From: Candidatus Poribacteria bacterium
GTDB taxonomy: Bacteria > Poribacteria > WGA-4E > JAJDTR01
DNA: 64,000 bases
Assembly: GCA_965222225.1 (NCBI GenBank)
Contig: CBDCTK010000002.1
Coordinates: 2,848,001-2,912,000, forward strand
Reading direction: 5' to 3'
The notes beneath the pieces were generated by a model, which was not told the DNA's origin, did not search any database, and saw nothing but the letters and a program-made list of their open reading frames with translations. Below, in pieces: positions 2,631 through 63,142 of this stretch (its first letter is position 1; each line of letters opens with the position of its first letter). Both the position numbers and the translations under genes were made by a program.

Positions 2631-2667
2631 GAGAACTCTATCGCGCGCGCTATTCGCTTGCTTGATC
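2631..2667 (-). repeat. 37-nt micro-element copy inside the REP GTAGGGTGCGCACTGCGCACC
   Basis: Reverse complement GATCAAGCAAGCGAATAGCGCGCGCGATAGAGTTCTC, flanked by tggt / gcagtgcgcaccctac. Confidence 0.85.
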
Positions 2668-7006: not shown

Positions 7007-7200
7007 GTAGGGAATAAAGATCAAGTGACTGAACAGGATTAACTGAGTGGTTAACGAAGGCGATAGAAGATCCCGTGCGATAGAAATCCTCTCCGAATCG
7101 CGACCTATTGTCGGGAATCGGAATTCCCTTCTACAGGCGACGCACGTAGGAACGATCGCCGGGGGGCGACCTTCCATCGCGAACAGAGCTCGCTCCTACA
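7007..7200. repeat. Cluster of GTAG-type REP hairpins with a nested pair of 37-nt micro-elements (7019-7090)
   Basis: Outer copy GATCAAGTGACTGAACAG|GTGCGATAGAAATCCT is split by inner copy 7037-7074. REPs gtcgggaatcggaattcccttctac, gtaggaacgatcgcc and tcgcgaacagagctcgctcctac. Confidence 0.8.
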
Positions 7201-11052: not shown

Positions 11053-13017
11053 TTAACGTTCTGTTCCGACAGAATCCCTAGAGGCTAAGTCCCACAACAG
11101 AATAGCATCGTCACCACTTCCACTGGCGAGCGTAGTCCCATCAGGAGAGAATGCAACGGAATTCACTACTCCCTTGTGTCCGGCAAGGGTCTTCTTGTGT
11201 TGTCCAGTACGCGTATCCCACAAGCGGATGGTCCAGTCCCTACTTCCACTGGCAAGTGTTCCTCCGTCAGGGGAGAACGCAACAGAGTTGATATCACGCG
11301 TATGACCTATTAGCGTTTGTCTGGGTGAACCTGTAAGCGCGTCCCACAATTTAAGTGAGCTCTTAGAGCCCCATTCTGCAGTGGCGATGGATGCCCCATC
11401 GGGAGAGAAAGCAATGGAGTACACAAGAGCGATGTCACCTATAAGAGTTTGCTTATGTTCCCCAGTGTACACGTTCCATAAGCGAATCTCGCTCGATGCC
11501 CCAGAGGCAATTGTAGCCCCGTCGGGGGAAAAGGCGACACATTTGATTTCATTCGTATGTCCCAAGGTTTGCTTGTGTATCCCGGTATGCGCGTCCCACA
11601 AACGAACCGTCTTGTCCGAACTCCCGCTGGCAAGAGTAAGTCCACCAGGAGAAAATGCAACTGACGTAACTAGACCTGTATGTCCTGCAAGAGTTCGAAT
11701 GTGTTTTCCAGTGTACGCATCCCACAGACGAATCGTATTATCCGCACTTCCACTAGCAAGAATATTCCTACCGGGGGAAAAGGCAGTAGATGTAACGTAC
11801 TCTCTGTGCCCCAATAGCATCCGAATGTGTTCACCGGTACGGGCATTCCACAAGCGAATGGCGGGTTGAGAACTCTCCTCACCACTAGTAAGTATGAAGC
11901 CCGTTGGGGAAAACGCCAAGCAGGTGACATGCCCTAAGGTAGGCTCTACCAGAGTGTGCAGGTGTCTGCCCGAGCGCACATCCCATAATCGAATTGACAT
12001 GTCCTTAAACCTTCTAAAAAAACTGTATCCTCCACCACTTGTAAGGGTAAGTCCGTCAGTAGAAAACGCAACGGAACTAACTTGACCCGTATGACCTTCA
12101 AGGGTATGGAGGTGTCTTCCCGAGCGTACATCCCACAAACGAATAGTCTTGTCCTCATAGTCACCGCCACTGGCAAGCGTAAACCCATCGGGGGAGAATG
12201 TTACGCTACTGACCCAATCCGTGTGCCCAACAAGGGTTTGTTTGTGCTGCCCTGTATGCGTGTCCCACAAACGAATAGTCTTGTCCTTATACCCTCCACC
12301 GCTGGCAAGCATAAGCCCATCGGGAGAAAACGCGATGGAGCAAATTCCACCCATATGACCGACAAGAGTATGCTTGTGTTGTCCCGTGCGCACATCCCAC
12401 AAACGAATAGTCTTGTCCTCATCAGCCTCGTCTTTTAGCAAGTCACTGAGCACGTGGTAACTTCCGCTGGCAAGTGTAAGTCCGTCGGGGGAAAATGTAA
12501 CAGTGCTAGTCGTACCCGTATGGCCGGGAAGAACCTTGAGTTGTGTTCCGCAGCGAACATCCCACAAACGAATTGTTCTATCATCGTCGCCTGAACTGCT
12601 GGCTAGCGTTTTCCCATCGGGGGAAAAGGCGACCGAAGTCACGACACCCCTATGCCCAATGAGAAGTTGCTTGAGTTCCCCAGTGCGAGCATCCCACAAG
12701 CGAACTTCCCAACTCCCACTGGCAAGCGTGAGTCCATCCGGAGAGAATGCAACGCAACGGACAACTCCCCTATGGCCCGTGAGCAGAGAGATTTCGGAAC
12801 CGCTGTGTGCATCATACAACCAGACGCCGATAGAACTCGCCACCGCGATTCGATCTCCGCTTGGAGAACACGCGATTTCAGATATCCAACCTTTGCCGAT
12901 ACGGAACTTTGCACCTTCGGGCAAACCCCATTGCGTATAATCATGGGCGACAACATCCTGTAGAAACCAGAAGTAAACAAACAAAACACAGAGCTTGAAG
13001 AACCGAATTTCTTTCAT
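11053..13017 (-). CDS. Secreted WD40-repeat protein (~13-14 repeats)
   Basis: Signal peptide, DYTQWGLPEGAKFRIGKG, repeated GH..V.SVAFSPDG.TLASGS.D.TIRLWD. Confidence 0.95.
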   Translation of the reverse strand: MKEIRFFKLCVLFVYFWFLQDVVAHDYTQWGLPEGAKFRIGKGWISEIACSPSGDRIAVASSIGVWLYDAHSGSEISLLTGHRGVVRCVAFSPDGLTLASGSWEVRLWDARTGELKQLLIGHRGVVTSVAFSPDGKTLASSSGDDDRTIRLWDVRCGTQLKVLPGHTGTTSTVTFSPDGLTLASGSYHVLSDLLKDEADEDKTIRLWDVRTGQHKHTLVGHMGGICSIAFSPDGLMLASGGGYKDKTIRLWDTHTGQHKQTLVGHTDWVSSVTFSPDGFTLASGGDYEDKTIRLWDVRSGRHLHTLEGHTGQVSSVAFSTDGLTLTSGGGYSFFRRFKDMSIRLWDVRSGRHLHTLVEPTLGHVTCLAFSPTGFILTSGEESSQPAIRLWNARTGEHIRMLLGHREYVTSTAFSPGRNILASGSADNTIRLWDAYTGKHIRTLAGHTGLVTSVAFSPGGLTLASGSSDKTVRLWDAHTGIHKQTLGHTNEIKCVAFSPDGATIASGASSEIRLWNVYTGEHKQTLIGDIALVYSIAFSPDGASIATAEWGSKSSLKLWDALTGSPRQTLIGHTRDINSVAFSPDGGTLASGSRDWTIRLWDTRTGQHKKTLAGHKGVVNSVAFSPDGTTLASGSGDDAILLWDLASRDSVGTER

Positions 13018-13192
13018 GGATAATCCTCTTTGGTGTGGTTGGGTGCACATGTCCAAAGCTGATTAATGCATTGGTAACGCACCTCGTTAGTCGAAAAACC
13101 TAACCCAATGTTTCTTTCGAGTAGGTGTTGGTGCAACCCATGACGATGATATTTCCAGAGTAACTGTTTGGGGTAATCACGTACCATCTCCT

Positions 13193-15237: not shown

Positions 15238-15363
15238 GTAGGAGCGATCTCCGAATTGCGACCTATCGGGAATCGGAGCCGCGATCGGGGAGAAGATCCT
15301 TATGGGATCTCTATCGCACTCACTAATCGCTCGCTTGATCTATTCGCTCAGTTGATCTCCTAC
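15238..15363. repeat. REP pair with nested micro-elements (full copy 15304-15340, split copy 15293-15303 + 15341-15357)
   Basis: gtaggagcgatctccgaattgcgacct ... gggatctctatcgcactcactaatcgctcgcttgatc ... ctcctac. Confidence 0.8.
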
Positions 15364-21867: not shown

Positions 21868-22160
21868 ATAGTCATCACATTCATATTTACACGTACTTAA
21901 AGAGAGACATTGGCGATTTGAAGATTGTTACGACAAGCCTACCGTAGGAGTTCAAGCGAACGGATAGTGAGTGCAATAGAAAGTCCCGTGCGATAGAGAT
22001 TCCTCTCCCGGTCGCGACCTCTTGTCGCGAGTAAAACTCGCTCCTACAGAAGACGTGCAATAAAGGGATCTCTATCGTCCTCGCTATTCGCTCCCTTGAT
22101 CGCCACTCCAAACAGAACTGCGTAAATCCTATATGTGTAATTCTTAGTTGCAATGACTAT
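21868..22160. mobile_element. MITE-like composite with REPs and three micro-element copies (21950-21987 +, tail 21988-22003, 22065-22101 -)
   Basis: Ends ATAGTCAT...TTACAC and GTGTAA...ATGACTAT are imperfectly complementary; internal AACTGCGTAAATCCTA end at 22116-22131. Confidence 0.6.
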
Positions 22161-57232: not shown

Positions 57233-57269
57233 GGGATCTCTATCGCCCTCCCTATCCGGTCGGTGGATC
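57233..57269 (-). repeat. 37-nt micro-element copy
   Basis: Reverse complement GATCCACCGACCGGATAGGGAGGGCGATAGAGATCCC. Confidence 0.75.
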
Positions 57270-59261: not shown

Positions 59262-59637
59262 GTAGGAGGGAATCAAGCGAGTGAATACCGAATGATCAAC
59301 TGAGCGATTAGCGAAGGCGATAAAGATCCCCTTGCCCCGCCGAATTTGCACGGAGACAAGGTTGATTATTTCGCTCCAAGCAAGTCTCTTCACTTAATCC
59401 ACGTAATCAATGCACTTCCATTTTATAGAAAAGGTATTATTATCTATTCGCTTGCTCCCACCCCTGTGCAGGTAGGAGCGATCTCCGAATCGCGACCTGT
59501 CGGGAATCGGAAGGGATTTCTATCGCACTCGCTATCCACTCGCTTGATTCCTCCTACCAAATACACACGCCGTAAGGCATCTCTATCGGGATTAGCTATC
59601 TCCCTTGCTGCTCACTCTGTTGATCGTTCGGTTGATT
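59262..59637. repeat. REP cluster with five micro-element copies (59271-59330 nested +, 59513-59549 -, 59576-59637 nested -)
   Basis: gtaggaggg-aatcaagcga...; gtaggagcgatctccgaatcgcgacct; gtcgggaatcggaa[module]cctcctac. Confidence 0.8.
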
Positions 59638-61290: not shown

Positions 61291-62929
61291 TTGATTATTC
61301 TGGATAATCATATTACCGATCTCCGTCCGCTTTCTAACCTTACAGAACTTGTTGAACTCAATGCACGAGATAATCCCATATCCGATGTGTCTCCCGTATC
61401 CAACTTGCGTAAACTGAAGTACCTCGATTTGAGCCGATGTAATATCGTTGATTTGCAACCACTTGCAGACCTCACACAGTTACACGTGTTGCAACTAAAT
61501 CACAACAACATTGTGGATATACGACCGCTTGCTTCGCTGACGAGGCCCTATAAACTTGAATTACAGCACAACATTATCACCGATTTTAGTCCGGTTTCCC
61601 ATCTCGCACTCGACACATTCTATTTCGATCAATATTGCATTTTACCGCGTCTGCCGCTCTTACCCCGTTTAACCGGGATGACCTTCTCTACCGTATTTAT
61701 GCCTACGTGGTTCATGCCTCACGATTCCGGCAGCCATATGCCTTTTAGTCCCGCAGACCAGTTTTTTGACATGGCCTATCGTTCTGCCGACAGTCAATTA
61801 GTTTCAGATAATCTCTATAATTCTATTGCAATCCGTGACGCCATCATCGCAAATAATCCTACTACAGTTTTTCTCGCCTACCTCCCTTGGCACAAAGCAT
61901 ATTTTACCCAATTACCCAAACATTCCATGTTATGGGCTCGCAACATCAGCGGCGAATTGCTCCTTCAAGATTTCGCCACCGGCGCCTATCTCGATTACAC
62001 CAACCCACTCGCGCGAGCCCTTGTCGTTAAAATGGCATCTGACATCGATAAATGCGGACTATACGACGGCATTGTACTCGACGCCTGGGGCTACGATTTG
62101 TTGCCGACGGATGTTTACAGTTCCGAATCGCAAACAGCCGCCCGCCTCGCTCTCGTAAAAGAAATTCGTGCCGCCACACGCCCAAATTTTTTAATACAAG
62201 TCAATTCGAATAGAAATCGTATCCCCGACACAGCACTGTATATCAACGGTCTCTCAATGGAAACCGGCATTCCCGGTTGGTTTGATGAGACCGACGTGCA
62301 TCTCGCCCTGCGTGAAACTGCACACGCACTACTTTGGGCTGAATCTAACCTTCGTTATCCACAAATAAACGGTGTGGTTGGTTGGGCTATACTCAGTCAA
62401 TCTCCCCACAGCCTCGAAAATCAACGTTGGATGCGTCTTCTTACAGCTTTAACGCTTACTCATTCTAACGGCTTTACGTTGTACCAGCACGGTCCAAATA
62501 CCTGGTATGACTTTTGGGATGCGGACTTAGGGCGTCCAGTGGGGGAGAAGGCACAGGTGTACGAGGGGCGATCAAGCGAGGGGACAGCGAGTGCGATAGA
62601 GATCCCAGGGCTTTATTCGCGAGTACACGAATGGATGGGCAGTGTACAATCATAGCGGGGCGCCACAGGTCATCACATTGCCGGAGGAGGTGCAGGGGGT
62701 AGCCAGCGGACTAGTAAACGTAGAGCATGCGCTGCCGAACCTCGACGGCGAGATGTATTTGCGGGTGACGCCGAAGAATCCGGCGGATGTGAACGGGGAC
62801 GGGGTGGTGAATATTTTGGACTTAACGCTGGTGGCGCAGGGATTTGGGACGGATAGTTTGAAGGGGGATGTGAATGGGGATGGGGTGGTGAATGTGTTTG
62901 ATTTGGTGTTTGTGGCGAACCAGTTCTGA
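61291..62929 (+). pseudogene. LRR + GH-like domain + dockerin/EF-hand protein; 5'-truncated by the IS and frameshifted near 62607-62618
   Basis: Internalin-like LRRs (N.ITDLRPLSNLTEL), CGLYDGIVLD, WDADLGRPVGEK, REYTNGWAVYN, two DVNGDGVVN repeats. Confidence 0.85.
62570..62606 (+). repeat. 37-nt micro-element inside the LRR-dockerin CDS
   Basis: GATCAAGCGAGGGGACAGCGAGTGCGATAGAGATCCC, 3 mismatches to consensus. Confidence 0.85.
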
Positions 62930-63070: not shown

Positions 63071-63142
63071 GATCAAGCGAACGATCAAGGAAGCGAATAG
63101 CGACCGCGATAGAGATCTTCTAGTGAGTGCGATAGCAAATCC
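63071..63142 (+). repeat. Nested micro-element pair
   Basis: GATCAAGCGAAC[GATCAAGGAAGCGAATAGCGACCGCGATAGAGATCTTC]TAGTGAGTGCGATAGCAAATCC. Confidence 0.8.

Follow-up and report, generated by a model that had tools for sequence, protein, structure and literature searches.

What decides the strand on which a very small repeat enters another repeat? The question is raised by a 64,000-nucleotide stretch of a Candidatus Poribacteria genome (G000:C2:2848001-2912000, hereafter the window), where copies of a micro-element lie inside REPs and read on the strand that begins with the host's GTAG tag. A sequence-only reading of the window had called this orientation rule strict, and had proposed that insertion is strand-specific and either exploits RAYT nicking of the host or prefers the purine-rich strand.

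The element and its distribution

The micro-element is a repeat of 34-38 bases, present in ~1000 copies in G000, with the consensus GATCAA-NN-GA-NN-GRWTA-NN-GA-NN-GCGATAG followed by a tail that ends in pyrimidines; its length is 37-38 nt in g1 and 34 nt in g4. A regular expression finds 878 full copies in G000 and 3 in the reversed genome, and a profile gives 1678 matches in G000 against 23 in the control. The four variable base pairs covary, with 97.3% of 665 cells paired, and two-sided changes in the stem number 144 versus 25.5 in shuffles, the signal collapsing in slid controls; these covariation figures are inflated by related sequences. Because G-T pairs far outnumber A-C pairs (211 vs 7 and 119 vs 13), pairing is kept on the purine-rich strand, and covariation together with this asymmetry indicates a hairpin that is functional on one strand, with conserved irregularities. 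Standard energy folding did not recover the covarying hairpin, and the structure of the element therefore rests on covariation. Its foot is GATC/AATC, not the GTAG/GGAG of a REP.

The exact pattern occurs in 10/10 genomes of the genus of G000 (365-1002 copies each) and in 4/4 genomes of genus g4 (121-148 copies each), with 2 matches in g2 and 0 in 26 other genomes. A covariance model run on 81 genomes of the phylum added 2 single strong and 5 weak copies; the strong ones, in G072 and G088, were set aside as passengers inside repeats. In a GTDB pattern scan, all named records among the matches listed are Candidatus Poribacteria. Pattern scans of viral and metagenome contigs gave no match, Rfam covariance models did not match the element, and a literature search, mainly outside subscription journals, found no paper describing the repeat.

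Several observations concern its surroundings. In G000 and in g4 pieces, the 3' end of the element (TCCC, TCCT, TCTT) resembles the pyrimidine run immediately 5' of REP tags, and REPs often stand directly after the element tail. A 21-nt look-alike with head and tail and no inner hairpin occurs at one common locus (L227/L228) in G036 and G040 of the element-free genus g3; its score is weak and it may be a chance match. A larger non-coding repeat with inverted ends (many loci in G000:C2; L224) contains A- and F-type REPs and up to four filled sites, and this repeat brought one element copy into an otherwise element-free genome.

Element copies and hosts in the window

The features of the window are collected in Table 1. 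As the earlier reading had it, all seven REP-hosted copies lie on the tag strand (7/7), with the tag 2-12 nt upstream; the nested or tandem pieces are co-oriented (the chains and pairs of Table 1, and 21950/21988); and close neighbours can occupy opposite chromosome strands (21950+ and 22065-; 59294+ and 59513-). The remnant seen at 21988..22003 is the commonest 3' neighbour of element copies genome-wide. The copy at 7019 has a hybrid REP as its host, the 5' arm of which derives from a family that is normally symmetric.

Table 1. Element copies and host repeats in the window, with examples of element doublets from genus g4 (REP family letters A-L are labels made for this analysis)
Feature	Position	Strand	Basis
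Element copy in 3' arm of A-type REP, 12 nt after GTAG	2631..2667	-	
Nested chain of three co-oriented pieces (7019/7037/7075), 8 nt after GTAG	7019..7090	+	
Nested pair (15341/15304), 2 nt after GTAG	15304..15357	-	
GTAG tag and first bases of B-type REP (GTAG-GAGCGATCTCC family), split by element	21944..21949	+	sequence; de novo REP library
Element copy, hairpin strand on +, slightly decayed head (GTTCAA), 2 nt after tag	21950..21987	+	sequence; covariation
3' remnant of older co-oriented element copy	21988..22003	+	sequence
3' arm of split B-type REP	22004..22018	+	empty allele of B-type family observed
Unfilled inverted partner REP (GTAG at 22047-22044), REPIN-like pair with B-type REP	22024..22047	-	
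Element copy in H-type REP, CAA replaced, 4 nt after GGAG variant (22109-22106)	22065..22101	-	
GGAG-variant tag and 5' arm of H-type REP host	22102..22109	-	sequence
Element copy without adjoining GTAG host	57233..57269	-	
Nested pair (59271/59294), 5 nt after GTAG	59271..59330	+	
Element copy 4 nt after GTAG	59513..59549	-	
Element copy within ORF 61291-62655, no REP host	62570..62606	+	
Nested chain (63071/63083/63120) in non-GTAG TCTGAATC/AATCC repeat, strand opposite its CTGA end	63071..63136	+	
Element doublets of genus g4, examples	L359:7680-7759, 11474-11553; L368-L383		

Among contigs from public runs, one skips 22065-22100 with 3 letters between, and is possibly a paralogue; a joint that goes back 36 in one RNA run, and skips at 22064, may represent tandem copies or paralogues. 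All of these runs are contigs, and such joints and skips were excluded as evidence of circles, expression or excision. ORF 61291-62655 appears 2 bases short just downstream of its element copy, and an element copy is present at the equivalent position in its paralogues (C2:3738216, C2:3940032). Elsewhere in the window, the gene at 11053-13056 contains repeats of ~42-44 codons that are WD40-like by pattern.

The orientation rule genome-wide

Hosts were assigned with a de novo library of 21 REP families. The 828 chains of G000 divide into 158 on the tag strand, 3 on the opposite strand, 8 ambiguous or symmetric and 659 unassigned, one of the 4 chains scored opposite having been placed in a symmetric family. 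This ratio of 158:3, far from 50:50, bears out the earlier claim of strand-specific insertion. The sister genome G005, sampled over 1.6 Mb of 6.6 Mb chosen partly for carrying copies, gave 78 on the tag strand, 2 opposite, 1 ambiguous or symmetric and 206 unassigned, from 287 chains. When the flanks are compared, GTAG is found 0-12 nt upstream of 244 of the 878 full copies in G000, and CTAC 0-12 nt downstream of 17; by chain, the corresponding counts are 267 vs 13 of 705 in G000 and 112 vs 10 of 287 in the G005 pieces. Insertion distances from GTAG peak at 5, 4 and 12 nt, with 95 junctions at 5 nt and 42 at 4 nt in G000. In the A and D families, which are palindromic and have the same stem on each strand, the tag strand received 68 insertions; 0 are scored opposite and 14 are unclassified.

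Many copies ride inside larger repeats and are therefore not independent. Copying of filled REPs makes the family-by-site class the appropriate unit of counting, and 24 such classes face the tag strand, with one clearly opposite family. Independent biases of 75% would predict ~62% agreement, so the rule is real, and it is near-strict per host family.

It is not strict in the sense first claimed, since it fails outside the window in 3 REP cases and 29 nested copies. The GTAG-CACAATCT/GTAG-CGCAAACT family of REPs is filled on the untagged strand in two genomes, and 5/6 of these reversed sites lie 25-35 nt downstream of a same-strand partner REP. One insertion abuts a D-type REP from its untagged side, and another, tandem-amplified, occupies the reverse strand in an A-type derivative that has no tag. 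Nested copies are on the same strand as their host in 220 cases and on the opposite strand in 29 (29/249), most of the latter at one site; at the opposite-strand self site, 34/50 are at CTATCG. All 11 insertions into the TCTGAATC repeat (11:0) take the strand opposite its CTGA end.

Junctions and a one-strand signature

Orthologous pairs of empty and filled alleles show that filling occurs in place; at one orthologous REP, four relatives have the empty allele and a fifth the filled one. The element is joined after a G, mostly with the loss of 1-4 host bases and with no duplication, and the 5' junctions (G|C, G|A, G|G) lie within the REP arm. Only the G is conserved at the target, in place of a fixed tetra- or pentanucleotide entered without loss. 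Mismatches adjacent to the junction are elevated (0.22-0.25 vs ~0.05-0.1), in part through misaligned pairs and the choice of anchor.

At the main self-nesting site, which is also the commonest same-strand nesting offset (98), YAR stands 5 nt before the junction G in 118/133 cases. In four REP families there is no G at offset 4-5; they account for 41 empty copies and for 2 tag-strand insertions, both of which belong to a symmetric family. Some families with a G in register are barely filled (1/29, 0/18). In the non-GTAG F family, an extra T/C places YAG in the 5-nt register in 50 filled alleles of G000 and 11 of the G005 pieces, and at most one empty allele carries it; this base could go back to two or three founders. 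Among 317 hosts outside the GTAG, self and F groups, TAR is found at offset 5 in 9% against a background of 2%, and a one-mismatch GTAG in 56/317 against a background of 9%; the modest enrichment outside REPs may come from decayed REPs. Sites lacking the YAR-N4/5-G signature comprise offsets 0-2 and 12, the A2 site, the opposite-strand self site and most g4 sites. When filled alleles were pooled and examined for foreign 5' flanks, the result was null (odds ratio 0.99, p=1), and the patterns of single families were noisy; we found no homology between variable stems and host flanks, and the hairpin potential of non-REP hosts is no higher than random.

Replication polarity

In G000 the cumulative skew reaches its minimum at dnaA, and the G-rich strand carries the ribosomal protein operon; this strand was therefore taken as leading. 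The hairpin strand of the element lies on the C-rich (lagging-sense) strand by 306:170 in clean replichores and by 348:138 after clusters are collapsed (p=6e-22, ~72%). This bias is 69-73% at every smoothing width, and it recurs in single-copy hosts (49:15), in G005 pieces (160:102) and in g4 pieces (30:8). In G021, same-strand runs of 10, 11, 20 and 8 copies match the local skew and one block runs against it (100/121 copies listed, each run sampled in one to three pieces); REPs of this genome are listed unevenly by strand and were used only below 1.35 Mb. Empty GTAG REP tags of G000 also favor the C-rich strand (217:65), opposite to the polarity reported for IS200/IS605. The opposite leaning (25:13) is shown by a 47-copy repeat of the same genome, for which a single 21-letter word served as probe. 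REPs are filled equally on the two replichore strands (Fisher p=0.71 and p=0.26), each on its own tag strand. Thus the earlier statement that the rule is not a replication-strand bias stands for the local rule, which holds on both replichore strands, but not genome-wide, where a lagging-sense bias of ~72% exists.

Candidate enzymes

Pfam identifies five Y1 loci in G000, of which one contains a stop, one is frameshifted and one is a fragment. A profile search added two Y1 fragments and one intact RAYT-like gene of 240 aa (G000:C2:3836207-3836926; L396:1708-2427), which lies below the NCBIfam cut-off and was missed by the Pfam search. It is followed by two GTAG-CACAATCT/CGCAAACT repeat pairs, which belong to the rule-breaking family, and is the only intact RAYT with GTAG-REP flanks. 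At the 55 Y1 loci examined, a subset of all Y1 loci, nearby element copies are mostly inside other REPs or other copies, and no Y1 gene is bracketed by free copies. No multi-copy gene, and no gene bracketed by element copies, stood out.

As helpers of the element, the candidates were rejected on their distribution among 41 genomes. Y1_Tnp is present in 34/41, including element-free genera; the intact RAYT has matches in 14/41, unlinked to the element; and a 247-aa Y1 has close matches in 3/41 that do not track it. Reverse transcriptases (RVT_1) occur in only 16/41 and do not match its distribution, nor does the AbiA type, found in 8/41. The one reverse transcriptase of G000, of the AbiA family at L006 (G000:C2:4499563-4501572), is patchy among relatives and sits at a recurring locus.

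Proposed mechanism and alternatives

The reading that we prefer, with a probability of roughly 0.4, is that a single-stranded element recognizes YAR-N4/5-G on one strand, a signature common to the GTAG strand of REPs and to the element's own main nesting site. The element would move as a single hairpin strand, produced by an HUH (Y1-type) or similar enzyme, and its insertion site would be chosen through a short signature of the strand that receives it, YAR followed after 4-5 bases by G. A GTAG-tagged REP has this signature on the tag strand only, the stem being the same on both strands and the tag not, and in the main nesting site of the element it occupies the register that it has at the main REP site. 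It might be read by the enzyme, or by pairing with a few carried bases of the donor flank. Since only the tag side of a symmetric stem supplies YAR, the rule would be explained without the enzyme of the host REP. Filled REPs would later have been copied, inflating the counts. The one-strand structure, the junction anatomy, the orientation counts, the shared register and the lagging-sense bias are direct observations. The signature explanation is incomplete: several sites lack the signature, its enrichment elsewhere is modest (9% vs 2%), and the carried-flank test was null.

A possible but doubtful alternative is that a RAYT bound to the GTAG hairpin marks the strand, and that its nicking or strand transfer supplies the end that is joined to the element. 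TnpA-REP is reported to bind REP but not iREP and to cut at C|T on both flanks of the hairpin, with a 5'-phosphotyrosine that any 3'-OH might resolve (PMC3479197); the tag strands of REPs have the same replication polarity as the element; and the reversed family, with its sites downstream of a same-strand partner, recalls the iREP cleavage sites of the published TnpA-REP model (PMC3333891). Under the reported guide rule, by which the identity of the base 5' of the cut depends on the fourth guide base, a GTAC guide shifting cleavage to GA or GT (PMC8266576), the element's own GATC foot would predict a cut after G; it would explain the junction G but not the frequent C after it. A nick guided by the host, as the sequence-only reading proposed, is a weak fit: GTAG-guided cuts fall at C|T or C|A beside the hairpin, and the observed G|C, G|A and G|G junctions lie within the arm that the enzyme would hold. 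The C|T or C|A rule is not consistently followed at the 3' junction either (21 of 27 classes examined), insertions are also found in unrelated repeat families, in coding DNA and in the element itself, and neither Y1 nor intact RAYT genes follow the element across genomes. The REP family that lies beside the one intact RAYT, moreover, is the one filled on its untagged strand. Target-primed reverse transcription leaves one precise and one ragged junction and a small target loss, much as the element does, and a reverse transcriptase could in principle copy an RNA template into the element at host 3' ends. We regard this as scarcely probable, given the distribution of reverse transcriptases described above and the lack of any transcription bias of the element.

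Other alternatives dispense with recognition of the tag. A few founder insertions might by chance have faced the tag, filled REPs then being copied or converting empty ones by short homology, so that the rule would be mostly inherited. The host bases lost are indeed fixed per site across many stem variants in two genomes, host family and stem type are associated (p=0.002), and many copies are carried in a larger repeat. This account is nevertheless unlikely: 24 tag-facing classes against one clearly opposite family are not expected from chance founders, and most REP families hold many different stem variants. Very unlikely is replication polarity acting alone to set the strand of both REP and element, with later inversions scrambling the rest; it would account for the C-rich-strand bias and for the runs in G021, but REPs on the G-rich strand are filled as often as the others, each on the strand of its own tag, B-type inverted pairs present both strands for insertion and have zero untagged-strand insertions, tag-hosted neighbours less than 300 bp apart are on opposite strands in 6/25 pairs (G000) and 3/17 (G005), opposite nested guests lie on the G-rich strand in 19/29 cases, and one G021 block opposes the skew. 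A preference for the purine-rich strand or for the transcribed sense strand is of negligible probability. The 10 nt upstream of the element are slightly purine-rich (0.55) and all chains average 0.517, but in the flanks of filled REP hosts the purine fraction, read on the element's strand, has a mean of 0.487, with 51% under half, and between co-directional genes sense and antisense copies are nearly balanced (257:236). Purine content and transcription are thus ruled out as causes of the rule.

Significance and comparison with known systems

The spread of REPs and of repeats under 50 bases is a problem that the published TnpA-REP work itself treats as open. Each genome offers ~1000 dated footprints, with empty and filled alleles, that fix strand, register from the tag and replication polarity, and the question reduces to simple assays in which tag, register or strand is altered and insertion is scored. 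REPs, moreover, can host their own tiny parasite. If the element is a REP-like parasite that enters through the nascent lagging strand, a tentative possibility taken up below, the same polarity in the REPs of G000 would show how REPs are inserted or lost at the fork.

Compared by description only, the closest kind appears to be the set of small dispersed repeats (SDRs) of Nostocaceae, reportedly described by Elhai et al. 2008 (Genome Res 18:1484). These are said to be very small (21-27 nt), to have covarying structure and to nest in themselves and in other repeats, and we know of no enzyme for them. The element likewise shows compensatory changes, nesting and insertion into other repeats; it differs in its length of 34-38 nt, in its phylum and in its GTAG REP hosts. 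SDR5 is reported to insert between the third and fourth base of HIP1, that is, after G (PMC4390886), which parallels the junctions of the element.

With REPs, REPINs and BIMEs the element shares an imperfect hairpin that belongs to one strand and has fixed mismatches, a 5' tetranucleotide that is conserved, high copy number and mostly intergenic position, and its replication polarity equals that of the REPs of G000. It departs from these RAYT-associated repeats in its GATC foot, its insertion into REPs and into itself, and its junction after G. A further likeness is seen in genus g4, where the tail is shorter (TYTT in 37/49 copies) and where tail-to-tail element doublets of ~79 nt with recurring 10-11-base spacers occur at 24 loci in 4/4 genomes; no doublets were found in 37 other genomes, the genus of G000 included. 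At three doublet sites compared, each was absent as a unit in at least one relative, with ~10-55 other bases there. Inverted doublets that behave as units are described for REPINs (PMC3116915), and the resemblance supports the view that the element may be REP-like in behavior, though not a member of the REPs.

Like IS200/IS605 elements (IS608, ISDra2) and their non-autonomous forms, the element is strand-specific, makes no target duplication and is linked to replication. Unlike them, it has one hairpin in place of two ends, no fixed target of 4-5 bases and a loss of 1-4 host bases, and whereas IS608 and ISDra2 use the lagging-strand template (PMC3333891), the element strand reads like the nascent lagging strand, being on the C-rich strand in 72%. 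Insertion into REPs has a precedent in kilobase elements with their own recombinase, the REP-targeting insertion sequences (IS621/ISPpu10), which enter set REP positions in a fixed orientation and are said to have been treated by Tobes and Pareja 2006; the element, by comparison, is 37 nt long, non-coding and found in many host families. We therefore raise, as a tentative and rather doubtful proposal, that it may be a single-stranded parasite of a new, REP-like class, with a GATC guide of its own, a REPIN-like doublet in one genus and no dedicated enzyme, which would find its targets by pairing of a carried flank or through a tag-like signature and would enter on the nascent lagging strand.
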